In this document: positions 1,084 to 52,374 of the stretch, piece after piece
How the letters are laid out: each line of letters starts with the position of its first letter
How positions within the stretch are numbered: the stretch's first letter is position 1
NCBI GenBank assembly: GCA_041908845.1
Contig: JAYREN010000001.1
Coordinates: forward strand, 1-55,256
DNA length: 55,256 bases
Origin: Holophaga sp.
GTDB taxonomy: Bacteria; Acidobacteriota; Holophagae; Holophagales; Holophagaceae
Reading direction: 5' to 3'
Position numbers and translations under genes: made by a program
Notes under the pieces: generated by a model
The model's input: the letters and a program-made list of their open reading frames with translations, nothing else
Databases searched by the model: none
Told to the model about the DNA's origin: nothing

Positions 1084-1145
1084 ACCAATATTCAAGTACC
1101 CGCCCCCCTGTGGTCGATTCCATTCCTACGACTCCGGAGCCCACC

Positions 1146-1925
1146 ATGTCCCAGGACGAAGTGATCATCCGTTTCCCCCAAGGACTTGTTGGATTCCCTG
1201 ATGCCAAGGAATTCAGGCTTTTCGAGCCCAGCGACGGCTACCCTTACAAATTCATGCAGTCCGTGACCTTCCCGGAGATTTCCTTCACCTGCATGGATGC
1301 TGCCGCCGTGAAGGCGGACTACGAAGTTCCCCTCGGCGATGCGGACTCCCAAACTCTGGCCCTGGTGGAGCCCCTGGAGGCCATGGTGCTGCTCATGGCG
1401 GTGGTCCCCGAGGACCCCACCCAGATGACTGCCAATCTCGCCGCGCCGCTGGTGATCAATACCCGCACCAAGGTGGGCGTGCACGTGGTCCTGGACAGCA
1501 CCCAGTTCCCCCTCAAGTACCCGGTATTCCCCTCGAAGTACGAGCTCCGCATCGCCTTCCCCGCGGGGCTGATCGGCTTCGCCCAGCACCATTCCTTTCG
1601 GCTCTTCGAACCCGTGGGGGGCTATCCCCTCAAGTTCCTCCAGTCCGTGGATGATCCAGATGTTTCGTTCTCCTGCATCGACGTGGCCGCCATCCAACCG
1701 GACTACGAGGTGGCGCTGGGGGAGGAGGACGCGGCGGCGCTCGCCCTGGAAGTACCCTCGGACGCCCTGGTCCTGGCCATGCTGGTCATCCCCGCGGACC
1801 CTCGGAAGATGACCGCCAATCTAGCGGGGCCCATCGTGATCAATGCCAGCACCCGAGTTGGTCGGCAGATCGCACTGAACACTCAGAAATTCCCCCTCAA
1901 GTTCCCTATTTTCCCCGAGAGCTGA
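1146..1925 (+). CDS. fliW: Flagellar assembly factor FliW, tandem two-domain form
   Basis: The track ORF 1110..1925 starts at GTG. ATG 1146 (MSQDEVIIRFPQGLVGF) is preceded by GGAG at 1136-1139. Two collinear FliW-like modules each carry F-P-x-G-L-x-G-F, FRLFEP, YP-KF-QSV, MTANL-(A/G)P-VIN and FPLK-P-F. The gene lies directly upstream of csrA. Confidence 0.85.
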   Translation: MSQDEVIIRFPQGLVGFPDAKEFRLFEPSDGYPYKFMQSVTFPEISFTCMDAAAVKADYEVPLGDADSQTLALVEPLEAMVLLMAVVPEDPTQMTANLAAPLVINTRTKVGVHVVLDSTQFPLKYPVFPSKYELRIAFPAGLIGFAQHHSFRLFEPVGGYPLKFLQSVDDPDVSFSCIDVAAIQPDYEVALGEEDAAALALEVPSDALVLAMLVIPADPRKMTANLAGPIVINASTRVGRQIALNTQKFPLKFPIFPES

Positions 1926-1937
1926 GGGATGTAGCCG

Positions 1938-2201
1938 ATGCTCGTCATCACCCGGAAGTCAGACGAATCAATCATCATCAATGGCAATATCGAAGTAATC
2001 GTTGTGGGCATCACCAAGGATGGGGTGCGCCTGGGCATCAATGCCCCCCGGGAAGTGCAAGTCCATCGGCGCGAAGTTTTCGAGGCCATTGCCGAAACCA
2101 ACCGTGCTTCCACCAATCCGGTGCCCAGTGCCCCGCTCCAGGACGCTGCCGCCCTGCTCCGGGCCAGTGCCCCTAAAGTCCGACTAACCAAGGGCCGATA
2201 A
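1938..2201 (+). CDS. csrA: Carbon storage regulator CsrA (flagellar FliW-associated type, extended C-terminus)
   Basis: MLVITRKSDESIIINGNIEVIVVGITKDGVRLGINAPREVQVHRREVFEAI matches the CsrA/RsmA core. An AGGGA RBS lies 8 nt upstream. The product is 87 aa with a tail of about 35 aa. Confidence 0.95.
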   Translation: MLVITRKSDESIIINGNIEVIVVGITKDGVRLGINAPREVQVHRREVFEAIAETNRASTNPVPSAPLQDAAALLRASAPKVRLTKGR

Positions 2202-2425: not shown

Positions 2426-2572
2426 ATGAAGATCACGGAACGGACTGCCCCTCCCCCCAAGCCTCCAGAACGGGATCGGCCCCAGCCGCCGCCCCCGCCC
2501 GTAGAGCGGCCCCAGGCCCCCGAACGCCCGAGATCCGGGGATGTAGGTCGGAACATCGATACCCAGGCCTGA
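2426..2572 (+). CDS. Small proline-rich ORF (48 aa) sharing the C-terminal NIDTxA motif with the preceding YjfB-like ORF
   Basis: Hand translation gives MKITERTAPPPKPPERDRPQPPPPPVERPQAPERPRSGDVGRNIDTQA. GGAGG lies 4 nt upstream. Its C-terminus SGDVGRNIDTQA parallels SGVGVNIDTRA of the neighbouring ORF. Confidence 0.35.
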   Translation: MKITERTAPPPKPPERDRPQPPPPPVERPQAPERPRSGDVGRNIDTQA

Positions 2573-33861: not shown

Positions 33862-36649
<2,788 letters not shown>

Positions 36650-37567: not shown

Positions 37568-37599
37568 GGCGGGTCAGGGCCACATCATATCTATTGTCA

Positions 37600-39324
37600 A
37601 TGTCGCCCATGCAGTCAGCGGAAAGGCTGTTCTCGATGAGCAAACCGGTCAGGCATTGGATCATTCAAAGCACCGGCGCTCTCGGTGATGTCTGTATGGC
37701 GCTCTGCGCCTGTAAGGCGCTCAGGGTGGCTGACCCCAGTTGTTCAATCTGGTTCGTGACCAGTCCCAACCACCTACCGTTGGCAGCGGCCTGCCCCTAC
37801 ATAGACGAATTCTTTGCCTATGGGAATTACGTCCGGATCGTCGATGCCATGCACGAGGCCGCCTGGCGCAATCCCGATTTCGCCTTTCGGCTCCTCGACC
37901 ACGTCCGGTTCGGCCTGGACCCCCTAAATCAAGTGGAGGCCTACCTCGCCAACCTCAAACAGCCACTCTGCCAGGCCGACAGCAAGACCCTGGACCTGAT
38001 CCTCCCCACCCCTACCTCGGGCTCCACCCCGGAACCCCTCCCGCCATGCCCAACTGGGAAACGCCGGATCGTGTTCCACGCCGCCCATAACGATCCCAAT
38101 CGCACTTGGCCGAAGCAGGCCTGGGAGGCCCTCGGCCGAAAGGTGCTAAACGAAGGACATCAACTGATCCTTATAGGGGAAAGCGCTATCAATTTTCAGG
38201 AGAAAGCCTTCTGCCTGGATCTTCCCGGGGCCATTGATTTCCTGGGCCAGTTCGATTCCCTCAAGGTCGTGGAACTCCTGAGGCTCTGTGACCTCTTCGT
38301 TTCTTCCGATAGCGGCCCAATCCAACTGGCCGGAGCATCGGACATTGCCATTTGCGGTATCTACACCGCCGCTGCAGGGCGCAGCCGTATTCCCTTCCGC
38401 CACGGACAGCCCTTATGGGGCGCCAGTCTAGTCGAACCTGAATGTCCCCACCGGGCCTGCTTCCGCTTCATGTCCGCGCCGGAACACATCAAGCATTTTC
38501 AACAGGCACTGAAGGAGGGAGGAAGAGTCATCAACGATCTACTGTCCACGTGGTGCCTGGAGGCTGACACCTATCACTGCCTCCGTGACATAACACCAGA
38601 AAGGGTTTGGCAGGCCATGACCCCTTGGATCCTGGTCACACCGATGGAACGGGAGGCCATGCTCAAGCAGGTGGAAACCATAGCAGCCTCCGGACAACCC
38701 CAACGTGCTCTAAATCTTTTGGAGACGTTGCCAGAGGTCCCATCCGAGGCAGCAACGGTCATGCTCCGTGCACAGCTACTCCAGAGCCTTGGTCGAGTGG
38801 ACGAGTCCTTCGAGCTGCTGCGACAGTGGCTACCCTTGTGGCCCTTGCATGGTGGAGTGGTCAACCTGATGGGGCTCGCCAGCCTTCGCGCAGGGGACAG
38901 CGACGCCGCCCGGAAATTCTTCAATAAGGCCAAGGACCTTCCGGATTCCGGGCACGCCGTGTCTCGCAATCTCGCATTCCTGGACGCGCTCCAGGCCCTG
39001 GAGACGAATTCCCTGGATCAAACGATAAGCGCCCTGGACGACATCATCGGAATGCCCTCCGGCTTCGATACCGTGGGAGAAGGCGAGATCGCGGTGCTCC
39101 GCCTCACGGTCATGCTTCTCCGAGGCCACTTGGAGGATGGACTACGCTTTGCGGACCAGGCCCTTTGTCAGGAAAAGCAGAACGCTGATCTCCACTTTCT
39201 GAGAGGAGAGCTCCTGCTCCGACTCGATTTGCCGACAGAGGCCAGGAGTTCGTTCGAGGCCTGCCTTTCCTTGAGCCCGGCTCATGCCCTGGCCACAGAA
39301 CACCTCAAGGCACTCACGACCTGA
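37600..39324 (+). CDS. GT9-like (heptosyltransferase-fold) glycosyltransferase with C-terminal TPR domain
   Basis: The N-terminal half has GALGDV, NDPNRTWPKQAWEALG and FVSSDSGPIQLAGA (the GT9 DSGP.HLA motif). The C-terminal 230 aa or so are TPR-like helices. The start is ambiguous (TTG 37594, ATG 37600, 37609 or 37636). Confidence 0.75.
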   Translation: MSPMQSAERLFSMSKPVRHWIIQSTGALGDVCMALCACKALRVADPSCSIWFVTSPNHLPLAAACPYIDEFFAYGNYVRIVDAMHEAAWRNPDFAFRLLDHVRFGLDPLNQVEAYLANLKQPLCQADSKTLDLILPTPTSGSTPEPLPPCPTGKRRIVFHAAHNDPNRTWPKQAWEALGRKVLNEGHQLILIGESAINFQEKAFCLDLPGAIDFLGQFDSLKVVELLRLCDLFVSSDSGPIQLAGASDIAICGIYTAAAGRSRIPFRHGQPLWGASLVEPECPHRACFRFMSAPEHIKHFQQALKEGGRVINDLLSTWCLEADTYHCLRDITPERVWQAMTPWILVTPMEREAMLKQVETIAASGQPQRALNLLETLPEVPSEAATVMLRAQLLQSLGRVDESFELLRQWLPLWPLHGGVVNLMGLASLRAGDSDAARKFFNKAKDLPDSGHAVSRNLAFLDALQALETNSLDQTISALDDIIGMPSGFDTVGEGEIAVLRLTVMLLRGHLEDGLRFADQALCQEKQNADLHFLRGELLLRLDLPTEARSSFEACLSLSPAHALATEHLKALTT

Positions 39325-40543
39325 TGGGTCGCCACAGCATTTGTTCATAGGCATCTGAGTCTAGAAGCTGCCCTAGATCCAGAGGCGGAATGCCCAGCCC
39401 CGGGTCGGCCGGGGAGACAAGCAGCCTCGGCTTCGTCCCGGAGGATGCCAGAGCGTGTCGCACCCCCTCCGTGACCGCCTCGCCCGGGATCTGCCCAAGG
39501 CAGTGGTGCCCCCCTTGATCGCAGGCCCAATCACAGAAATAGCAGGCCAGGGGGTGACAGACCACCGTCGCCCAGGCACTCACTGGCGCGTAACGCCCAA
39601 AGGCTCCACCGCCAACGAGGACGACATGGGGTACCTTTCGAGCGGCGCAGAGGAAAACCCAGGGCCCCTCTACACCCACCACCACCCTGCACAAGGAAAG
39701 CGTTTCCAGCACCTCGGAAGCAGCGAGCGAACCCCGGAGATCCAGACACCGCGATTTCCCCCACCATGCCACATCTTCCCCAAGCGCTCCACGGCCTCCT
39801 GGCCCTAGGAGAATGACCCCCATGTTCGGATCCGAGTGAAGAATGGGCCCCAGAGACTCACCCCAGGCATGAAAACCTGTCGAATCCCCCGGGCCACACC
39901 ACAGGCCTAGCCAAGCGGATGGTTTTGACCCGCCCTTCGCCCCCAAACGCCTGGCTGAAGATCGGCATGCCTCCTTGCAGACTGGCCATGAAAGTCGCTC
40001 CTCTCCGGGGTCCATTCCTAGGGCCAGGACAAAATGGCGATACCGGTCCGGTTCAGCGTGGGGCGCGTCCAGAAGATCGACGAGGTGCGTATAGAAGCCG
40101 TCCCAGCCATTGGCATCGATTTCATCCTCACCCCGGTTCACTGCTGTCTTCCAGCCAATCCGTTCAGGGGCATCACTGGCCAGAATGGCTATGTCCACAA
40201 GGGCATTTCGTGTGGGAGAGGGCACCAGCGCCAAATCGAATTTTTCTGGCCGGATGGAATTAATCAGCTGTCTCACCGCTATTTCTTCCCAAATCGGGAT
40301 CGCCAGCGCCATCTCCGCGTTTTCCGGAATGGCGATCACGCCATCAATCCCAGGATGGGCCTGGACGGCCCCGAGTTGGCCGGCGGGGACCAGCGCCGTG
40401 ATTTTTGCATTAGGGTGGCGCACCCGAAGCCCATGAAGGAGGCACCCAGCGAGGATTGCCTCGGGCAACCCCAGATTGAGCACCACAAGAATCTTCTGAA
40501 TCGAGTCCGCGGGACGGTGAAAGGGGGCCTTCGGCAATGTCAT
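39314..40543 (-). CDS. GT9-like glycosyltransferase
   Basis: KILVVLNLGLPEAILAGCLLHGLRVRHPNAKITALV is a GT9-type N-terminus. The second Rossmann half contains VGVEGPWVFLCAA. The start overlaps the stop of the upstream gene by 4 nt. Confidence 0.65.
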   Translation of the reverse strand: MTLPKAPFHRPADSIQKILVVLNLGLPEAILAGCLLHGLRVRHPNAKITALVPAGQLGAVQAHPGIDGVIAIPENAEMALAIPIWEEIAVRQLINSIRPEKFDLALVPSPTRNALVDIAILASDAPERIGWKTAVNRGEDEIDANGWDGFYTHLVDLLDAPHAEPDRYRHFVLALGMDPGEERLSWPVCKEACRSSARRLGAKGGSKPSAWLGLWCGPGDSTGFHAWGESLGPILHSDPNMGVILLGPGGRGALGEDVAWWGKSRCLDLRGSLAASEVLETLSLCRVVVGVEGPWVFLCAARKVPHVVLVGGGAFGRYAPVSAWATVVCHPLACYFCDWACDQGGHHCLGQIPGEAVTEGVRHALASSGTKPRLLVSPADPGLGIPPLDLGQLLDSDAYEQMLWRPIRS

Positions 40544-41901
40544 GGGAGCACCTTCGGGGACCGAGGGCAGCCATTCAAGGCCGACTCAAGGCGATTTACG
40601 GCATCAGGAAAGCCGTGTCGCTCACGGATGAAGGCCTTGGCCTGTGCACCCAGGCGAGCAGTCAGAGCGCCATCCTCCCATAGGCGGAGGCAAGCCCGAG
40701 CGAAATCGTCCGGGCTATTGGCGACCAACCCTTGATGCCCATCCTCAAGGCCGCAGGCTAATGCAATTCCTGCAAACGAAACCACCGGCACCCCACACGC
40801 CATGGACTCCATGACCTTCACCTGTTGGCCGGTGCCACCCAGCAGTGGGCAGATCGAAAACCGCGCATCCGCATACAGGGTATCGAGGTCGTCCACAAAG
40901 CCGAGCAGGTCCAAGCCCGGAGTGGGGAGCAAATGCTTGCAAATCGGGCCCGCCACCCGGAGCCGGAAGTCGGGTGCGGAACGCAGGATGATCGGCAGAA
41001 TGTGCTGGACGAAATTGGCGAGCCCCTGAAGATTGAAACAATTCATGGCAGCCAAAAAAATGGGGGCTCCGGCGTATCTATTGGGCAGATCTCGCGGTTC
41101 GAAAACCAGTGGCAGATGGTGGACTCTGGCGGGGGACAGGTGGCGCTGAAAGATCTGACCCTCCCAGTCGGACACGGCAATTGCCAGATCGAACGCATCC
41201 ACTGCGGCAAGTTCCGCCTCCAATCCTTCCACGGTGTCGAGGCGAATGGCCTCCAGGAAACTGTGATGGACCACCCTTGGCGATAGCTTAACTAGGTCGT
41301 ACGGGCCACCCTTGAAGTGGGGATTCAATTGGGCCTGAAGGTGCGCGTTCAGAGATAGCAGATCCTGGCTCAGGAGCACCTTAGTGATGCTGCGCGCAGA
41401 AGGAGAGCACGCGAGAGGCGCCCACTTCGCATAGTTCACGAGCAGCAGGTCTGGCGCTTCCCGTTCTAGAAATGTTTCAAACCAAGTTCGCAGCCCAGGA
41501 GGATTCCATCGGCTCGTTTCAAAATTGGTCTGCCACGAAAACCGAACCGAGCACCAAGCCCAATCCGAACTACGAGGCTCATAGATGTGAACCTTCGCTG
41601 CGAAATCTCGCTCGAAGGCCCTCTTTCGTTCCTCCGTCCAAGGCTCATCGTGAAAGAGTGGGGAGGAAGCCACGGTCAGATCAAAACCCAACGCCTGGAA
41701 CATTCGCACAACTTGACAGAAGTATCTATGTGCTCCAGTTGCACTTGGATATGGACTAAATGGGACGAAGACCACTGCCCGGCCTCGTCTGCGTGACATG
41801 GACACCAGCATATCTCCAGAGAACCAAGGTTGAATTCGACTACTCTGCCACACGGCACGAGACTTGGGTTTCGAATTCCACAGAGGAGGGACCTGATTCA
41901 C
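40540..41901 (-). CDS. GT-B glycosyltransferase (GT4/GT1-like)
   Basis: The C-terminal motif is CPLLGGTGQQVKVMESMACGVPVVS...GLVANSPDDF. The true start may be an internal Met at 41811 or 41799 (MSRRRGRAVVFVPFSPYP). Confidence 0.7.
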   Translation of the reverse strand: MNQVPPLWNSKPKSRAVWQSSRIQPWFSGDMLVSMSRRRGRAVVFVPFSPYPSATGAHRYFCQVVRMFQALGFDLTVASSPLFHDEPWTEERKRAFERDFAAKVHIYEPRSSDWAWCSVRFSWQTNFETSRWNPPGLRTWFETFLEREAPDLLLVNYAKWAPLACSPSARSITKVLLSQDLLSLNAHLQAQLNPHFKGGPYDLVKLSPRVVHHSFLEAIRLDTVEGLEAELAAVDAFDLAIAVSDWEGQIFQRHLSPARVHHLPLVFEPRDLPNRYAGAPIFLAAMNCFNLQGLANFVQHILPIILRSAPDFRLRVAGPICKHLLPTPGLDLLGFVDDLDTLYADARFSICPLLGGTGQQVKVMESMACGVPVVSFAGIALACGLEDGHQGLVANSPDDFARACLRLWEDGALTARLGAQAKAFIRERHGFPDAVNRLESALNGCPRSPKVLP

Positions 41902-41958
41902 CTAGCGAATTCGAGCTAGGATTGGGGATCTGCCAGACAGCTGAATAAAGGGGATCAT

Positions 41959-44118
41959 GTGAGGATCGAGCGCATTGTTTTAACGGGCGATTTCTTCCGG
42001 ACTTCGGATCACCGCGAGCCAAACCAACTCGGCAACGTCTTCAGGTTGCACGGTCTGATTTCAAAAGCGTTGGTCAAAGCAACGGGCATCCAGCCGACCG
42101 TCTGGTTCGGGCAGGAATATCCACTGGGCAGGTGTGAAGGGCAAGGGACTCCTGTGCCGGAGGAATATTTCCGGGCAATGTACAGAACCCCCAGTTTGTT
42201 GTCATGGATTGACACCTTCTTCAAGGAACCAACGGATGCCCTCCTGGAGGCATTGGCGCCCGCATTTGACGGATCCCTGGTCATTGCCTTCGAGTTGTCC
42301 CCCTTACTCGAACGCACACTGGATCGGCTTGGAGTCCCGTGGATCGACATCTTGTGGAGCCCCATACGGTTCCTCCCGGATCTAGCCTTCTCCTTCAGAA
42401 GCTCTCGCCACGTTGACCTTTCCCGTTGTGGCAACCATTGGCTGAAGAGAGGGCATTTGGACCTGGCCGTGGAACACCTCCGCGATTACTACAGCAAGAC
42501 CCCTTGCCTCCGTGGAGATGATCTTGTCTTTTTCGCACAGACCAACGTGGACCGAACCCTCCTGACGCCCCAGGGGCTCTATGCCATCGAAGATGCCGTC
42601 AGCGGCATCTTGGAGCGGTTGGGGGACCGGAAACTCTGGATCAAACCCCACCCGCTTCAGTTAGACAATCCCATCCTTTCTCTCCTGAAAGACAAGGCAC
42701 GGGGCGAGTTGATCCCCGATTCCACCTACGCCCTCCTGGCCTCCGATGTCCCCCTCGAGGTCGTCACCATTTCATCCTCCGTCGCCCATGAGGCGCGGCT
42801 TTTCGGGAAGAAGGTCACCACCTTCAACAGCCATTTCCTCGACCACGTCTATGACGGGCCGATGAGCCTGAACGACTGCTGCACTCCGCCCTTCTGGTCG
42901 CGACTGCTCCAGCCGCTCCTCCCAGTACAGGAAACACCGGAAGAGGAGCCCCTGGCGCCCGTTTCTCCGAACGTCGTCCGCAGAATAGTTGGGTTTTACG
43001 GTCTGGACCAGGCCGTTTGGGGAGATGATCGCCCTGCGGATGTGGATGGCTTGGCCGAACTGTTCTCGAAGGTGGAGGCATTCCTCGAGCTCAGACAGAT
43101 CGAGACTGCAGAAACGCTCGTTCAGGAGAGACTGGAACAAGGCATCGAGGCAGAACGCCTGTGCCTGTCTGTTGCCCTAGGGAACATCCAACTCCAGAAG
43201 GCGGATCCGAACCAGGGGCTTGAGCTTTTCCTTCGTCTGGTCGTGGAGTTCTCGGACGATTCGATCGTCTATGTGAACCTTTGCGGCGCCTTCCTGCAAT
43301 GTGGACAGACGGATTCCGCCAACGCCTGGCTGAAAATCGCCCAGAAAAAGTTCCCGAAGGATCCTGATCTTGCGCAACTCGCCCAATCCTTCCCCGAGGC
43401 CATCTCGAAGGTCCAAACAGAGGATCGGCTCTTCTGGATGGACAAGTATCATGCATGGGAAAAATCCATGCGGACTCATGCCGGTCAGGCCTTCTCGACC
43501 AGGACCCTTCGCAGGATCGAGGCCTACCTGCCCGAACAGGTGGAGTGTTCCGTTGAGACAGGATGCGGAAAATCCACGATCCTGTTTTCTAATCTATCCA
43601 AACACCACAAGGTTTTCGCCTTGGATGACCGTTCCCTGGCGGAGCAGTCCTCGGTCCTCTTCTTCCAGGATTGCCCCATCAGCAGGCCCGAGCGCGTGGA
43701 GTTCATTTATGGACCCACCCAGCGCACGCTACCGCCCTACGCCGAGCACGGCCTGTACGATGTAATTCTCCTGGATGGGCCTCACGGCTACCCTTTCCCG
43801 GAGCTGGAGTACCTCTGCCTGTTCCCGCATCTCAAAAAGGGGGGAATCCTGATCGTGGATGATGTCCAGATCCCCACCATCGGGCGCCTAGGAGACTTCC
43901 TGGCGGAAGACGAGATGTTCGAGCCCTTGGCGTTGGTCGAAGGCACAGCGCTTTTCCGTCGGACAGAGGCCCCGACCTTTGACTCCTGCGGCGACGGCTG
44001 GTGGACTCAGCGCTACAACCGGCGTCGCATCTCACCCAAGCGCCCCTTTTTCCTCCAGGACGGCCCCGTAGCTGATCACTTTTCTCCGAGGAAACTCGAC
44101 GAAAAGCTGAATCCCTAA
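41959..44118 (+). CDS. Three-module enzyme: Capsule_synth(KpsC/KpsS)-like glycosyltransferase N-domain, TPR middle, class I SAM-methyltransferase C-domain
   Basis: The start is GTG 41959, after AAAGGGGA. The N-domain has LVFFAQTNVDRTLL and LWIKPHPLQ. The TPR-like segment is near residues 370-480. The C-domain has VETGCGKST (SAM motif I) and VILLDGPHGYPFPE...GGILIVDDV. Confidence 0.65.
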   Translation: MRIERIVLTGDFFRTSDHREPNQLGNVFRLHGLISKALVKATGIQPTVWFGQEYPLGRCEGQGTPVPEEYFRAMYRTPSLLSWIDTFFKEPTDALLEALAPAFDGSLVIAFELSPLLERTLDRLGVPWIDILWSPIRFLPDLAFSFRSSRHVDLSRCGNHWLKRGHLDLAVEHLRDYYSKTPCLRGDDLVFFAQTNVDRTLLTPQGLYAIEDAVSGILERLGDRKLWIKPHPLQLDNPILSLLKDKARGELIPDSTYALLASDVPLEVVTISSSVAHEARLFGKKVTTFNSHFLDHVYDGPMSLNDCCTPPFWSRLLQPLLPVQETPEEEPLAPVSPNVVRRIVGFYGLDQAVWGDDRPADVDGLAELFSKVEAFLELRQIETAETLVQERLEQGIEAERLCLSVALGNIQLQKADPNQGLELFLRLVVEFSDDSIVYVNLCGAFLQCGQTDSANAWLKIAQKKFPKDPDLAQLAQSFPEAISKVQTEDRLFWMDKYHAWEKSMRTHAGQAFSTRTLRRIEAYLPEQVECSVETGCGKSTILFSNLSKHHKVFALDDRSLAEQSSVLFFQDCPISRPERVEFIYGPTQRTLPPYAEHGLYDVILLDGPHGYPFPELEYLCLFPHLKKGGILIVDDVQIPTIGRLGDFLAEDEMFEPLALVEGTALFRRTEAPTFDSCGDGWWTQRYNRRRISPKRPFFLQDGPVADHFSPRKLDEKLNP

Positions 44119-44135
44119 GGCAATCGGGTGCGCTC

Positions 44136-45794
44136 CTATTCCAACGGGGGTGGTTCGAACCCCGATTCCACAACGGGTAAGTCCACGACACCTGCCGGAT
44201 GGTCCCCGTCGAACCCCTGATGTGCCTGAAACGGGAAGAAGGCCCCCAAGCGATCGAGGTCGCCCTCATTGTGCGTCAGTTCTGGCAGCGAAAACCTCTG
44301 GTAACGCCCTATCAGGGCGAGACAGTACCCGCAGCGCACCATCTCGACTTTTCGGCAGTCCACGCCGAGGCGGACTAGGTTGTAGAGCATCAAGCCTAAA
44401 TTGAACACGTGGACATGGCCGCTGACCACCTCGGGCTTAGGGGGGGGCCAGATCAGGCAGAAGGCCCCCCCGGGACGGAGGCAGGAAAAGAACCGTCGCA
44501 GAAATCGCTCTGTGTCTGGGACGTGCTCGATGGTGTGGGAGCTGTAGACAGCATCATAGGTGTCTGGGAGTTGGACTCCCAAGAAGTCCCCAACAAGGTA
44601 GTTGGCGGCGGATCCGGAATACCCCGCCATCACCACTTCCTTAGGGACTAGGTCCACGCCCGTGACGACCATTCCCTTCTCGAAGAATTGACGCCATACG
44701 GGACCTGATCCGCAGCCGATATCCAGGATGGAGGATGCCTCGTACCGCTCGACAAAATACCGGGTCACCTCATCTCGGCCGCCGATGGGTTTTCCCAAAT
44801 CGAAGTGACGCCCGGACTGCTTTTGATGGTGTGGGGACGAGGGCGTCATGGGGCTAGGCTCTAGGACTTCCATGAGCAGGCACACCTCCTCATTCTCCGG
44901 CGCCAACGCGTAAGCCGTGCAGGCGGCTGCGCCGGCCTCATCAAGTTGCCCGGCCCGGAGAAAGGCGCCTCCGAGATTCACGAGCACAAGAGGATCGCTT
45001 GGAAAGTCCCCGGCAAGGCCCTTGAGGATTTCAATCGCCTGTAGGACCTCATCCTGAACCAGCAGGACATTCGCTCGGGCGAGGCGCAGCAAACGGTCTC
45101 CAGGATTGTGTCGGAGCCCCTCACCAAGCGTCTCCTGTGCTTCTTCCAGAGCCTCCGAATTCAGAAGGCTTTGGGCCACGGCAAGCACCTGCTCGACTTC
45201 AAACGAAGCCGGGAGGGGTCGTCCCTTGGTGAAGACAGCTATCTCCCGAGCTGGATCACCCAGGCGTAGCTCTACACGCTCGAGACGATACCTGGCATCG
45301 ACGTCCCGAAGGAGCGCCAACCATTTCCCGGGGGGCATGATGCTCAAGTGGCTGTGGCCGTCGTCGTAGCAGGCGATCTTGTGGAAGGCCATGGCGCTCA
45401 GGGAATCGATCCTGCGAAGAATCTCCGGCAGCGTTTCGGGCGCCAGGTGCTCGAGGAAGTCAGCGCTGACAACCAAATCTGGCTGGCCAACCGGAAGCTC
45501 CCGGTACATGTCCACCCGCTGAAAGGACACGTTGGAATTCCTGGATATCACTTCCCGGATGCGGGGAGAGACGGCCCAGTCGCATCCTGTAACACACCTG
45601 AAAAAGGGCGCGGCCAATTCGATGAACCTGCCGTTCCCGCAGGCAATTTCAAGGAGCGATTCCGCCCCGAATGCCCGGATCTGATCGAGCTCCTCCAGCA
45701 ACCAATTGTTGGCCTGATAACTGGCTTCCTCCTCATGGAGTCGCTGGTAGTAGGCTGCATCTCGAAGAGGATATGGAGGTTCCGGGAGCTTCAT
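44136..45794 (-). CDS. Dual SAM-dependent methyltransferase with central TPR segment
   Basis: The N-terminal methyltransferase has LLEIACGNGRF...VVSADFLEHL. The central part is TPR-like helices. The C-terminal methyltransferase has ILDIGCGSGPVW...YDAVYSSHTIEHV...LRPGGAF. Confidence 0.75.
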   Translation of the reverse strand: MKLPEPPYPLRDAAYYQRLHEEEASYQANNWLLEELDQIRAFGAESLLEIACGNGRFIELAAPFFRCVTGCDWAVSPRIREVISRNSNVSFQRVDMYRELPVGQPDLVVSADFLEHLAPETLPEILRRIDSLSAMAFHKIACYDDGHSHLSIMPPGKWLALLRDVDARYRLERVELRLGDPAREIAVFTKGRPLPASFEVEQVLAVAQSLLNSEALEEAQETLGEGLRHNPGDRLLRLARANVLLVQDEVLQAIEILKGLAGDFPSDPLVLVNLGGAFLRAGQLDEAGAAACTAYALAPENEEVCLLMEVLEPSPMTPSSPHHQKQSGRHFDLGKPIGGRDEVTRYFVERYEASSILDIGCGSGPVWRQFFEKGMVVTGVDLVPKEVVMAGYSGSAANYLVGDFLGVQLPDTYDAVYSSHTIEHVPDTERFLRRFFSCLRPGGAFCLIWPPPKPEVVSGHVHVFNLGLMLYNLVRLGVDCRKVEMVRCGYCLALIGRYQRFSLPELTHNEGDLDRLGAFFPFQAHQGFDGDHPAGVVDLPVVESGFEPPPLE

Positions 45795-45978: not shown

Positions 45979-46017
45979 GGCAGCACGGATGCTGCCAAGG
46001 CACATCACGGAGGATGT
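45979..46017 (+). promoter_or_regulatory. Two GGA-loop hairpins in the flagellin 5' leader (candidate CsrA binding sites; the second sequesters the SD)
   Basis: Hairpin 1 is GGCAGCA-CGGA-TGCTGCC (45979-45996). Hairpin 2 is ACATC-ACGGAG-GATGT (46002-46017), which contains the GGAGGA SD just before ATG 46019. Confidence 0.55.
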
Positions 46018-46018
46018 C

Positions 46019-46672
46019 ATGCCTTCTATTCTCAATAACGTTGCGGCTCTCACCGCCACCCGTCAGCTGGGTATCACCTCGATCGGCATGAGGCAGACCA
46101 TCGAGCGCCTCACCACCGGCAAGCGCATCAATCACGCTTCCGATGACGCCGCGGGCCTGGCGAACGCCAACAGCTATCTGGCTGATTCCAAGGTCGCCAC
46201 CGAGCGTCGCAAGCTCGCCACCCAGGACTACTACGCGGCTGCGGCTGATGATGGTTACCTGGATGAGGCTACCAACCTGATCATGCGCACCATGGAACTG
46301 GCCGCCGGTGGCAACGCCTCCGCCGCTGAAATGGCGTCGGTTTCCGCCCTGGCCATTGCTGCTGCCGCCAAAACTAGCGCCGCCACTTCTGTATCGGCCA
46401 TTACCGACCTAGCCTCGGCTTCCACCGCTCTGGGCGTGGTCAACACGGCCCGCAGCACCATCGCGGCCACCATGGCCGAGGCTCTGAGCAACGCCAACCT
46501 CTACGGTATCGAGGCTGAAGCCAAGACCGCCCAGATGAGCAACATCATGGATGCCGATATGGGCGCCGAGGTGGTGAGCCTCACCAAGTGGCAGATCCTG
46601 AGCCAGTCGGGCACCAGTGCGCTGACCAACGCGAATCAGGCGAGTCAGACCGTACTCGGTCTCCTCCGGTAG
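46019..46672 (+). CDS. fliC: Flagellin, unusually short (217 aa)
   Basis: The N-terminus is MPSILNNVAALTATRQLGITSIGMRQTIERLTTGKRINHASDDAAGLA. The C-terminus is IMDADMGAEVVSLTKWQILSQSGTSALTNANQASQTVLGLLR. The upstream part of track ORF 45989.. was discarded. Confidence 0.92.
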   Translation: MPSILNNVAALTATRQLGITSIGMRQTIERLTTGKRINHASDDAAGLANANSYLADSKVATERRKLATQDYYAAAADDGYLDEATNLIMRTMELAAGGNASAAEMASVSALAIAAAAKTSAATSVSAITDLASASTALGVVNTARSTIAATMAEALSNANLYGIEAEAKTAQMSNIMDADMGAEVVSLTKWQILSQSGTSALTNANQASQTVLGLLR

Positions 46673-46743: not shown

Positions 46744-47130
46744 ATGACCGATCAAGTGAACCCTCTGGGTGGCTTGGTTGCGGGAATGGCGAAGACTATC
46801 CCGGTCGCTTCCCCTGTTCCCTTCAAGCCTCCCCCCAAACCTGCCGAAGCCCGGGCCCCAAGCCCGGAAAGGCGGGACCAAGGTGTGTCCAAGGAAAGCC
46901 TGGAAGCCGCCGCCACCGACGTTCAGGACTACTTCCAGCAGGTGCCCACGGATATCAAGTTCGTGGTGGATAAGGCTACGGGCACCTACTACTTCAAGAT
47001 CATCGATCCTGAGACCCGGGAGATCATCCGCCAAGTGCCATCCGAAGAAGTGTTGGCCATGGCCCGGAAACTGCGGGAACTTAGCAACTCCCGGAATGCC
47101 TCCGGCGTGCTCATGGACAAGGAAGGCTGA
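46744..47130 (+). CDS. flaG: Flagellar protein FlaG
   Basis: The 128-aa product has the conserved FlaG C-terminal block IKFVVDKATGTYYFKIIDPETREIIRQVPSEEVLAMARKL. It lies between flagellin and fliD. Confidence 0.88.
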   Translation: MTDQVNPLGGLVAGMAKTIPVASPVPFKPPPKPAEARAPSPERRDQGVSKESLEAAATDVQDYFQQVPTDIKFVVDKATGTYYFKIIDPETREIIRQVPSEEVLAMARKLRELSNSRNASGVLMDKEG

Positions 47131-47148: not shown

Positions 47149-48792
47149 ATGGCGACAACCATGAGTTTCCAGGGCGTCACGACGGGACTTCAGACCGACA
47201 ATCTGATCAAGGCCATCATCGCCCGGGACAGCGGTGGGGTGGAGCGCCTCCAGGGCCGTCAGGCCCTCAACACCAAGCGCTCCGCCGCCCTGGCGTCCAT
47301 GCGTTCGGGCATGACCAACATCACCGTGAGCATGGCCAAGCTCTTCGACAGCTTCGCCAACCGATCTGTTTCCAGCACGGATTCCACCGGAGCCTTCGCC
47401 ACCGCCACCGCCACCGGGGCGGCCAGCGGTAGTTACGAGGTCAAGGTCGCCTCGGTCGCCACCAAGGGCCAGCTGGGCCCCACCGTGGTGGATGAGCTGC
47501 CCACCACCCTGGCCATGGCGGATGCCAACACGGCGATCACCAGTGGCACCGGAAATTTCACGGTGACCGGCACCGACGGCGTGGCCAAGACCTTTGAACT
47601 CACCAACAACAGCCTCAACGGCCTAAGGGATGCCATCAACGCCTCGGGCGCCGGGGTCACGGCGACCGTCGTCAACACCGGCAAGGGCGGCAATCAGTAC
47701 CAGCTCGTGCTCACGGCCAAGGAGACGGGCACGGGCACCACCAGCGGTGTTGTTTCCCTGCGGGCGTCCGGGTTTACCAGTACCGAGGCTTCCCTGGGCG
47801 ACCTGGCCGGAGGGCTCTCCTCGACTCCAGCGGGAACCGCCAAGGATGCGGTCTTTTCGATCAACGGGATCGAAATGACCCGCAAGAGCAATGTCGTTAC
47901 CGATGCGGTGGACGGGGTCACCTTCACCCTGAAGAAGGGTGACGCCACCAACACCACCACCCTCACTGTGGGCCAAGACAAGGCCAACGCCACGGCGGCC
48001 ATGCAGGATGTCATCGCCAAATTCAACGCGGTTCTCAAGACTTACAAGGATGCCTCGGCGGTCTCCAAGACCGACACGGGAGTCACCAACCAGGGCCCGC
48101 TGACCAGCGATGCGGTGGCCCGCTCGGTCATCAACGACCTGCGCAGCGTGCTCCGGGGCAACCCTGATGGCCTGCCGGATTCTGCCACGTTCAAGTCCGC
48201 CGCGGACCTTGGCATCAAGACCAACGCCGACGGCACCCTGAGTCTGGATACCACGATCTTCCAGGCCGCCCTCGACAAGGATCCGGTGGCGGTCAAGAAC
48301 GTCTTCGCCTTCTCTGGCAGTTCCACGAACGGGGCGGTTTCCTTCGCTTCCGGAACCTCCAAAACGGCCACCGGCCCCGTGGATTTCGCCATCACCACCG
48401 GTGCCGGGGGAACTCTCACGGGCTCGCTCACGGTGGGGGGCACGACGTATGCCGACCTCAGCGTGACCAACGGCGTCCTCACGGGGCCTGCGGGCACTCC
48501 CCTGGAGGGATTGAAGCTGAATGTCACCGGTCCCGGCACGGGCGCACTGACGCTCACTCGAGGCATTGGTTCAAAGCTGCAGGATATGATCACCAGCCTC
48601 ACTTCTTATTCGGGGACCATCGAAACGACTCGCACCAGCATCGAGGCCCAGAACAAGATCCTGGCCACCCGTATCGAGTCCGGGCAGGCCAATCTGGAGA
48701 AGAAACGTCTCGCCCTCAAGGCGCAGTTCGACAAGATGGAGACCATGGTCTCCCAGCTGCGGGCCTCCAGTTCGAGCCTCAGCGGGATCTGA
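47149..48792 (+). CDS. fliD: Flagellar filament capping protein FliD
   Basis: The N-terminus is GVTTGLQTDNLIKAIIARDSGGVERLQ. The C-terminal coiled coil is TSIEAQNKILATRIESGQANLEKKRLALKAQFDKMETMVSQL. Confidence 0.92.
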   Translation: MATTMSFQGVTTGLQTDNLIKAIIARDSGGVERLQGRQALNTKRSAALASMRSGMTNITVSMAKLFDSFANRSVSSTDSTGAFATATATGAASGSYEVKVASVATKGQLGPTVVDELPTTLAMADANTAITSGTGNFTVTGTDGVAKTFELTNNSLNGLRDAINASGAGVTATVVNTGKGGNQYQLVLTAKETGTGTTSGVVSLRASGFTSTEASLGDLAGGLSSTPAGTAKDAVFSINGIEMTRKSNVVTDAVDGVTFTLKKGDATNTTTLTVGQDKANATAAMQDVIAKFNAVLKTYKDASAVSKTDTGVTNQGPLTSDAVARSVINDLRSVLRGNPDGLPDSATFKSAADLGIKTNADGTLSLDTTIFQAALDKDPVAVKNVFAFSGSSTNGAVSFASGTSKTATGPVDFAITTGAGGTLTGSLTVGGTTYADLSVTNGVLTGPAGTPLEGLKLNVTGPGTGALTLTRGIGSKLQDMITSLTSYSGTIETTRTSIEAQNKILATRIESGQANLEKKRLALKAQFDKMETMVSQLRASSSSLSGI

Positions 48793-51661: not shown

Positions 51662-51949
51662 TCAAGTCGCCTTGTAGCCTTTGAGGGCGCGGGCGCCCTG
51701 TCCCTGCAGATTCAATTCCCTGCGCAGGAGATCCCGCTGCTCGGCGAGAGCCTCGGCCCGAGCATCCAGGCTCTTGGATAGGGCGTGAGCCCGTGTCACG
51801 ATCGCGGCCCATCCTGGCCCCCGCGAAGCGGAGAGCACGGCCTGATCGAAGCCTTCCCGCCAGGCGGCGATGGCCTCCGGTTCTGGCAGTTCTCCTTGAA
51901 GCAATTGCTCCAGGGCATCTAGGGCAAGCACCACTTCTCGGTCGCTCAC
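51662..51949 (-). CDS. Small helical protein downstream of fliS (possible FliT-like chaperone, by position only)
   Basis: The 95-aa Ala/Leu/Glu/Arg-rich helical ORF overlaps the fliS stop by 4 nt. No diagnostic motif was recognised. Confidence 0.5.
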   Translation of the reverse strand: MSDREVVLALDALEQLLQGELPEPEAIAAWREGFDQAVLSASRGPGWAAIVTRAHALSKSLDARAEALAEQRDLLRRELNLQGQGARALKGYKAT

Positions 51950-52374
51950 ACGGACAGGCCGTCAATGGAGCCCGCTGGCTGATTTCCGGAACTCTTCCGG
52001 CGGTGGAGTTCTTCCCAGGTTTCTTTCAGTTCGCCCATGTGATTGAAGATCACCCGAAGGCGACCCGGTTCCCCGTTGAGCGAACCCTCGTAGAGTTCAT
52101 TCGTCCACCAGTCGTACAGGCGAATGAGGTTTTCCACGACTTCGCCCCCATCATCGAGATTGAGGCGCTCCTTGAGTCCCACGATGATGTCTGAAATCCG
52201 CCCAATGTACACGGCCTGATTGGGCAGGTCTCCGGTCTCCATGGCCTTGATCATCAGATTGAGGAACCGCTGCCCACCCTCCAGCAGCAGCGCCGCCACC
52301 TGCTCGGGACTCGCGCCCTGGATGCGCTGCACCAGGTAATGGTTGGTGGCTTTCCCTCCGGGGTATCCCTGCAT
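51946..52374 (-). CDS. fliS: Flagellin-specific export chaperone FliS
   Basis: The 142-aa product has ASPEQVAALLLEGGQRFL and VENLIRLYDWWTNEL, which are FliS four-helix-bundle signatures. A GAGAGGA RBS lies upstream. Confidence 0.9.
   Translation of the reverse strand: MQGYPGGKATNHYLVQRIQGASPEQVAALLLEGGQRFLNLMIKAMETGDLPNQAVYIGRISDIIVGLKERLNLDDGGEVVENLIRLYDWWTNELYEGSLNGEPGRLRVIFNHMGELKETWEELHRRKSSGNQPAGSIDGLSV

Follow-up and report, generated by a model that had tools for sequence, protein, structure and literature searches.

A two-module FliW encoded directly upstream of csrA in Holophaga-like bacteria

FliW, CsrA and flagellin form a textbook partner switch linking translation with secretion, and its behaviour depends on stoichiometry. 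FliW acts in a 1:1 ratio with CsrA via translational coupling, and a CsrA dimer takes up to two FliW molecules, one of which suffices to inhibit it (bioRxiv 10.1101/2020.07.02.184341). Oshiro et al. found that Bacillus subtilis FliW residues P26, F58, N108, A111 and Q124 are needed for CsrA binding around N55, and that A122 and K123 are needed for inhibition, with K123 forming a salt bridge to CsrA D41 (bioRxiv 10.1101/2020.07.02.184341). The flagellin footprint on FliW, as determined by hydrogen-deuterium exchange, consists of residues 22-28 and 95-115 (PMC6070490); because this footprint overlaps the CsrA cluster, binding of one partner to an ordinary FliW should preclude binding of the other. 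The nearest described case to a FliW with two modules is the FliW1/FliW2 paralogue pair of Helicobacter pylori (PMC11905337). Here we describe a fliW gene from Holophaga sp. whose single polypeptide contains two complete FliW modules. It lies in a stretch of 55,256 nucleotides (GenBank assembly GCA_041908845.1, contig JAYREN010000001.1, positions 1 to 55,256 of the forward strand; hereafter the window). This tandem fliW is a real gene that a Holophaga-like bacterium has inherited vertically, and it is found throughout the Holophaga/Mesoterricola part of the Holophagaceae. The reading that we prefer, at a probability of roughly 55%, is that its product serves as a bivalent FliW within a flagellin-FliW-CsrA partner switch that is standard in other respects.

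The tandem fliW open reading frame (ORF) runs without interruption from ATG 1146 to a TGA stop codon at 1923-1925. An alternative GTG codon is present at 1110, but the ATG is favoured as the start because the N-termini of homologues read M-[SA]-Q-[DE]. The Pfam FliW profile PF02623 (122 positions) is matched end to end twice, at residues 8-127 and 136-255, with a total score of 217.5 bits; separately, the two halves score 106 and 116 bits (cut-off 25). The NCBIfam FliW equivalog models also find two matches in the protein. One of these models, NF009793, gives 204 bits for the whole protein, above its cut-off of 130, whereas the halves taken singly (101 and 107 bits) fall below it. These matches bear out an earlier note on this DNA, which had claimed a pair of complete FliW modules in a single protein directly 5' of csrA and had proposed a profile check for two independent FliW-family matches. 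The same note had described the halves as collinear, gapless and identical at about half of their positions: in our alignment, 69 of 125 residues are identical (55%, E = 6e-53) and there are no gaps. Its module ends were also right, but its starts were one codon off (I7 corresponds to nt 1164 and L134 to nt 1545). At 259 aa and with two modules, the protein departs from the single-domain architecture of approximately 140-160 aa by which FliW is recognized. Translation of the C-module on its own was considered and rejected, as the stretch from residue 115 to residue 156 contains no ATG, GTG or TTG codon in frame.

At the DNA level, the two halves are 64.5% identical, with only 49% identity at third codon positions, so the in-frame duplication is old and not a repeat artefact; the guanine-plus-cytosine (GC) content at third codon positions is 0.81 in each half. 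This divergence is too great for a repeat-collapse error and weighs against the possibility that two adjacent fliW genes were merged by faulty sequencing or assembly, or by a recent mutation in a single genome. Such an origin is made exceedingly improbable by the gene's distribution as well. A search of 5.8 billion proteins retrieved 391 relatives, and among the best 120 of these the lengths range from 240 to 295 aa (nearly all 256-267 aa), the identities from 58 to 94% and the query coverage from 92 to 100% (at least 97% in all but one). These tandem-length relatives, among which Holophaga foetida, Mesoterricola sediminis and M. silvestris are represented, comprise more than 100 protein clusters. 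A scan in which each species was represented by a single genome yielded 80 loci, nearly all of which are labelled as Holophagales-type metagenome-assembled genomes (MAGs) or isolates, and the stop-to-stop ORFs of all 80 were searched with a module hidden Markov model (HMM). Two modules are found in one ORF at 28 loci, including H. foetida DSM 6591 and Mesoterricola MAGs, and one module in one ORF at the other 52, including Geothrix rubra, G. limicola and Candidatus Geothrix skivensis; two separate fliW genes at one locus were found at none of the 80.

The 29 tandem genes (that of the window and those of the 28 loci), which come from an isolate genome and closed MAG chromosomes among others, all lack internal stops. 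Pairwise ratios of nonsynonymous to synonymous substitution rates (dN/dS) are approximately 0.1-0.45 in both halves, a pattern indicating that purifying selection is acting on each module. The worry of a lost stop codon, raised in the earlier note, is thereby excluded. Five Holophagaceae-type fliW-csrA contigs in this set (L009, L029, L046, L014 and L019) carry the labels of Deltaproteobacteria, Bacillota, Betaproteobacteria or Solibacteraceae MAGs and are probably mis-binned or mislabelled.

In a first neighbour-joining tree of the modules, the C-modules grouped with Geothrix-type single modules. The single-module genes of loci L029, L053 and L065 nest among the C-modules in the neighbour-joining module tree, and on this placement they may be collapsed tandems. 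When the tree was bootstrapped (neighbour-joining, Kimura distances), no grouping of N-modules, C-modules or single modules reached 30% support; monophyly of all Holophagales modules received 96.5%. Given this low support, either module loss in Geothrix or a later fusion may have occurred, and the tandem genes of the deep subclade L025-L028 may or may not represent a separate event.

Both modules are confidently folded by AlphaFold2 (predicted local distance difference test score of 88). In a Foldseek search, the tandem model matched the FliW crystal structures 5DMD, 5DMB and 2AJ7 with E values of 1e-10 to 1e-11 and target-normalised template modelling (TM) scores of 0.75-0.83, those for 5DMD and 5DMB being 0.81-0.83. 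As modelled, the protein is two independently folded FliW beta-barrels joined by approximately four residues. The sequence of this linker varies among tandem proteins; its length is fixed at four residues in the main clade, and it is absent (zero residues) in subclade L025-L028.

The linker bears directly on how such a protein could engage CsrA. The two FliW sites of a CsrA dimer are symmetric, and one tandem FliW might occupy both sites of a single homodimer as an intramolecular clamp, 1:1 and with high avidity; the earlier note had proposed a 1:1 clamp of this kind. The residues around the CsrA N55 contact are kept in both modules, and the recurrence of tandem FliW beside csrA in the five lineages checked (see below) is what might be expected if selection had matched it to a partner that is itself a dimer. 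However, the two FliW molecules bind on opposite sides of the CsrA dimer (PMC7829508), and a linker of four residues, or none in L025-L028, is so short that the clamp is doubtful. Moreover, one FliW per dimer already blocks RNA binding (bioRxiv 10.1101/2020.07.02.184341), the N-module often lacks the basic residue 123 needed for inhibition, and AlphaFold2 gives no defined two-module geometry (predicted TM score [pTM] of 0.53-0.54). We therefore regard the clamp as unlikely. The geometric argument used against it applies equally in favour of cross-linking, in which bivalent tandem FliW and bivalent CsrA dimers would form chains or assemblies that sequester CsrA. A precedent is CesT, the bivalent homodimers of which assemble with CsrA dimers into irregular multimers (PMC5864733). 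Because the N-module of the window, with V and H at positions 123/124, may bind CsrA poorly, polymerisation of this kind seems to us quite improbable here.

To compare the modules with characterized FliW proteins, the B. subtilis contact residues were mapped onto them through the 5DMB sequence. In the N-module of the window, F47, N97 and P101 correspond to F58, N108 and P112 (B. subtilis/Geobacillus numbering, used hereafter), with V112 and H113 at the K123 and Q124 positions. In the C-module, F175, N225, P229, R240 and Q241 correspond to F58, N108, P112, K123 and Q124. The A111 position is occupied by A in the N-module and by G in the C-module. Across the related loci, F58, N108, P112, N116 and Q124 are each retained by 27-29 of the 29 N-modules (27 in the case of Q124), by all 29 C-modules and by 51-52 of the 52 single-module relatives. 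The K123 position differs: Arg is present in 28/29 C-modules, 10/29 N-modules and 10/52 single-module relatives. The CsrA encoded in the window has I14 and N55, both of which are invariant across related loci, together with E at residue 39. CsrA residue 39, a possible salt-bridge partner of Arg123, is acidic in 23/23 tandem loci; of the single-module loci, 7 of the 12 with an acidic residue 39 have Arg123, a far higher share than the 3 of 39 with a non-acidic one, although these counts ignore kinship. On these residue patterns, both modules look like working FliWs, and the C-module alone looks consistently equipped for inhibition.

A further difference between tandem and single-module loci lies beside the N55-N108 contact. 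Tandem loci have 'EA' at CsrA residues 53-54 and 'TAN' in both FliW modules, and most single-module loci have 'AE' in CsrA and 'TTN' in FliW. These pairs may reflect co-adaptation; they amount to essentially one phylogenetic switch.

We place the tandem FliW in a standard partner switch because csrA adjoins it, N55 of CsrA is kept and the flagellin gene of the window has a leader with two GGA hairpins (described below). The protein would be bivalent, since the partner-binding core is kept in both modules. The architecture, its conservation, the purifying selection, the synteny and the residue patterns are observed, whereas the partner of each module, and the effect of the pairing on the switch, we infer. 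The C-module would be an obligate CsrA inhibitor, as Arg is fixed at its K123 position and Q124 is kept. The N-module would be a second site; in this genome, given V and H at positions 123/124, it would more probably hold flagellin, or else bind CsrA without inhibiting it. By analogy with ordinary FliW, a second module would remove the constraint of mutual exclusion between CsrA and flagellin, and the retention of partner-binding residues in both modules is compatible with both being held simultaneously, a possibility that the earlier note had raised. If translation is coupled, two FliW sites would be made per CsrA chain, and this doubling would be expected to shift the set-point and the cooperativity of flagellin homeostasis.

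Several observations weigh against this bivalent reading. A search for module-specific signatures in the 29 tandem proteins found just one position that is fixed differently in N- and C-modules; with almost no module-specific residues, the case for a division of labour comes down to positions 123/124. CsrA residue 41, the salt-bridge partner D41 in B. subtilis, is Q in the window; a pairing of E39 with R240 is a conjecture, and the counts of residue 39 and Arg123 given above take no account of kinship. In L025-L027, csrA is not downstream of the tandem fliW (in L025, where the gene occupies 193-972, it is followed by dxs on the other strand), and linkage to csrA is therefore not obligatory. 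The GGA hexamer is frequent in the window (48 copies compared with approximately 35 expected). Finally, no inter-module orientation was fixed by AlphaFold2, the pTM being 0.54 with 43 sequences and 0.53 with 115.

The scarcity of module-specific residues would be expected if the two modules were equivalent and independent, having been fused by tandem duplication and stop loss, so that the only effect was one of dosage: a doubling of FliW sites relative to coupled CsrA. Twenty-six positions are conserved at 90% or more in both modules, and dN/dS is similar in N- and C-modules. Young tandems elsewhere (N-C identity of 77-82%) resemble simple duplications, and in one lineage, tandem forms occur along with collapsed single ones, and a third copy lies 5'. 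Pure dosage would not account for the fixation of Arg123 in C-modules but not in N-modules, for the conserved linker length or for the clade-wide retention of the fusion; in addition, the lack of any Holophagales locus with two separate adjacent fliW genes suggests that the fused state itself is maintained. We consider the dosage explanation possible but rather doubtful, and favour the bivalent FliW described above.

Tandem FliW proteins are not confined to the Holophagaceae. HMMER searches across 1.84 billion cluster representatives identified 3350 FliW relatives, the best 150 of which were inspected for module number; two-module proteins are expected near the top of this ranking because their score against a tandem query is approximately double. 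Twelve of these 150 have two modules and 138 have one (median length 158 aa), in agreement with the earlier note's premise that FliW is normally a single-domain protein. The Holophagales tandem family accounts for one of the twelve, and the eleven others, from metagenomic lineages, are P0124, P0125, P0128, P0129, P0131, P0141, P0147/P0278, P0153, P0171, P0202 and P0252. Ten of the eleven were scanned and show two Pfam FliW matches each, while P0252 has two matches to our own module HMM. These proteins are 272-326 aa in length, with N-C identities of 31-82%. The GC content of their loci ranges from 26 to 58%, and their hosts are therefore diverse. A profile search with the alignment of non-Holophagales tandem proteins retrieved mostly single FliWs of Bacillales; P0278 alone matched only itself.

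In a module tree, the N-modules of seven of the other tandem proteins cluster together, as do their C-modules, which argues for one old fusion among them. In P0124, P0125, P0131 and P0252, the N- and C-modules of the same protein are sisters. Taken together, these topologies indicate that FliW fusion arose at least 4-5 times independently. Each of the five non-Holophagales contexts examined has csrA immediately 3' of the tandem fliW (5/5). In one of them, L084 (3183-5362), a single fliW is followed by a tandem fliW (N-C identity of 77%) and then by csrA. In the 90% cluster to which this tandem protein belongs (P0131, P0275, P0276 and P0277), forms of 166 aa resemble N/C recombinants and thus recombinational collapses of the tandem; in this lineage, module number seems to expand and collapse.

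Tandem FliW is thus rare but recurrent, with at least 12 of 3350 representatives having two modules. The uniqueness implied in the earlier note was overstated, as the architecture is clade-wide and recurs elsewhere. That note had also allowed for tandem FliW being common and already characterised; in the literature searched, we found no paper describing or characterising a two-module FliW. A tentative idea, which we would put forward as less probable than not, is that fusion, which adjoins csrA in all contexts checked except those of subclade L025-L027, is a convergent adaptation to dimeric CsrA that makes a graded 1:1 switch cooperative, either because CsrA would be freed only after two flagellins load one chain or because chains or clamps of bivalent FliW and CsrA would sequester CsrA at a far higher avidity.

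The features of the fliW-csrA locus and of the flagellin region are listed in Table 1. The csrA gene starts 12 nt past the fliW stop codon in the same orientation, and the overlap of its ribosome-binding site with that stop codon would allow translational coupling of the two genes. The closest solved structure to the encoded CsrA is 5DMB_D, the FliW-bound CsrA of Geobacillus. The order fliW-csrA(-yjfB) is common to tandem and single-module loci, with a fliW-csrA gap of mostly 6-24 nt and a yjfB-like gene kept 3' of csrA in most related loci; csrA is immediately 3' in 23 of the 24 assessable tandem loci outside L025-L028. A gene for a 3'-5' exonuclease lies 5' of fliW both in the window and in tandem locus L028. 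A scan of positions 900-2800 for consensus sigma-70 promoters and intrinsic terminators found none. The CsrA proteins of Holophagales (window and L001-L080) all have a conserved C-terminal motif, P-[IL]-Q-D-A-A-A-L-L-R-A, approximately 10 residues past N55, with a basic tail behind it. After the yjfB-like gene, a proline-rich ORF of 48 aa (2426-2572, forward strand) ends in GRNIDTQA, echoing the GVNIDTRA end of the yjfB-like product; this ORF may encode a second, degenerate YjfB-like small protein.

Table 1. Coordinates of the tandem fliW gene, its parts and other motility features of the window.
Feature	Position	Strand	Basis or remark
fliW ribosome-binding site, GGAG	1136..1139	+	Read from sequence; 6 nt 5' of ATG 1146
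Tandem fliW, 259 aa, two FliW modules in a single ORF	1146..1925	+	Stop TGA 1923-1925; two PF02623 matches
N-module, residues 5-128	1158..1529	+	Profile, half-versus-half alignment, residue mapping
Linker P-S-K-Y, four residues	1530..1541	+	Between modules
C-module, residues 133-256	1542..1913	+	Profile, half-versus-half alignment, residue mapping
csrA ribosome-binding site, GAGGGA	1924..1929	+	Overlaps fliW stop codon; 8 nt before ATG 1938
csrA, 87 aa, C-terminal extension	1938..2201	+	Pfam CsrA, 79 bits; NCBIfam CsrA
yjfB-like small motility gene, 59 aa	2220..2399	+	Pfam YjfB_motility, 35.9 bits
Flagellin leader, two GGA hairpins (putative CsrA sites)	45979..46025	+	Sequence and RNA fold
Minimal flagellin, ~217 aa from ATG 46019	46019..46672	+	Pfam Flagellin_N and Flagellin_C; mechanical ORF start 45989
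flaG	46744..47130	+	Pfam FlaG, 73.5 bits
fliD, filament cap	47149..48792	+	Pfam FliD_N and FliD_C
fliS, flagellin export chaperone	51946..52374	-	Pfam FliS, 88.5 bits

The companions of the partner switch (flagellin, fliS, fliD and flaG) are all encoded inside the window. The leader of the B. subtilis flagellin gene, hag, is a two-site CsrA target, and the flagellin leader of the window resembles it. CACGGA occurs at 45984 and 46006, 22 nt apart, with each GGA in or beside a hairpin loop, and the second hairpin overlaps the Shine-Dalgarno sequence GGAGGA (46009-46014). The predicted fold of the leader has a free energy of -31.6 kcal/mol (z = -2.9). From sequence and predicted folding, this looks like a putative dual CsrA site, which we treat as supportive only. 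The flagellin itself has the N-terminus MPSILNN and consists only of the Flagellin_N and Flagellin_C helical regions, the variable middle domain being absent. TPR-linked glycosyltransferase and methyltransferase genes lie directly 5' of the flagellin gene (37594-45794), and DegT, Polysacc_synt_2 and GT4 genes are found at 13.2-19.4 kb of the window; together, these may constitute a flagellin glycosylation or modification island. A gene on the reverse strand at 35195-36649 encodes an odd combination, an indole-3-glycerol-phosphate synthase domain fused to a C-terminal histone H1-like HC2 region (Pfam HC2, 64 bits).

A conserved and recurrent covalent pair of FliW modules is a natural test of valency and stoichiometry in the partner switch, and the single-module relatives in Geothrix serve as built-in controls for a comparison of tandem and single forms in one family. 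Tandem proteins are annotated merely as 'FliW', and surveys of FliW and CsrA that are blind to architecture miss the difference.

Compared with FliW of B. subtilis and Geobacillus thermodenitrificans (5DMB, 5DMD), each module of the window protein matches the family profile end to end, with TM scores of 0.81-0.83. F58, N108, P112 and N116 are present in both modules, with Q124 in the C-module and H at this position in the N-module. The locus is also similar in that csrA is directly 3' in a coupling-permissive arrangement, its product carries N55 and I14 as well as a C-terminal extension, and two GGA sites, putative targets of CsrA, lie in the flagellin leader. In contrast to the Bacillus/Geobacillus proteins, each chain holds two modules (259 aa compared with approximately 143-151 aa), both modules lack the N-terminal segment of approximately 16 residues, and CsrA residue 41 is Q rather than D/E. 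The genomic setting differs as well: instead of a flgK-flgL-fliW-csrA operon, the window has fliW-csrA-yjfB at a distance of 44 kb from the flagellin gene. A conceptual analogue only is the CesT homodimer of enteropathogenic Escherichia coli, in which a bivalent antagonist meets bivalent CsrA; CesT has an unrelated fold, forms a non-covalent dimer and binds over the RNA-binding site (PMC5864733).

The single-module FliWs of Geothrix and of many other Holophagaceae (L029-L080) share the same fliW-csrA-yjfB locus, are 53-57% identical to either module of the window protein and are encoded beside a nearly identical CsrA. They differ in having one module, in position 123, which is mostly F/Y/L rather than R, and in FliW residue 107, which is T rather than A; in their CsrA, AE takes the place of EA at residues 53-54, and most have S at residue 39. 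The H. pylori pair resembles the two modules in that FliW1 and FliW2 are diverged copies (39.5% identical) that meet a single CsrA with a C-terminal extension, and a division of labour between the copies has been proposed there (PMC11905337), as it is here. The H. pylori copies are, however, separate and unlinked, with different promoters and an approximately 10-fold difference in expression (PMC11905337), whereas the modules of the window protein are covalently held 1:1 by a four-residue linker. The other tandem FliWs share with it the two modules and, in each context examined, a csrA immediately 3'. They are only 27-37% identical to the window protein and represent separate duplications, some with inter-module spacers of approximately 33 residues, and four of the five contexts (all except L084) lie inside flgN-flgK-flgL-fliW-csrA operons.

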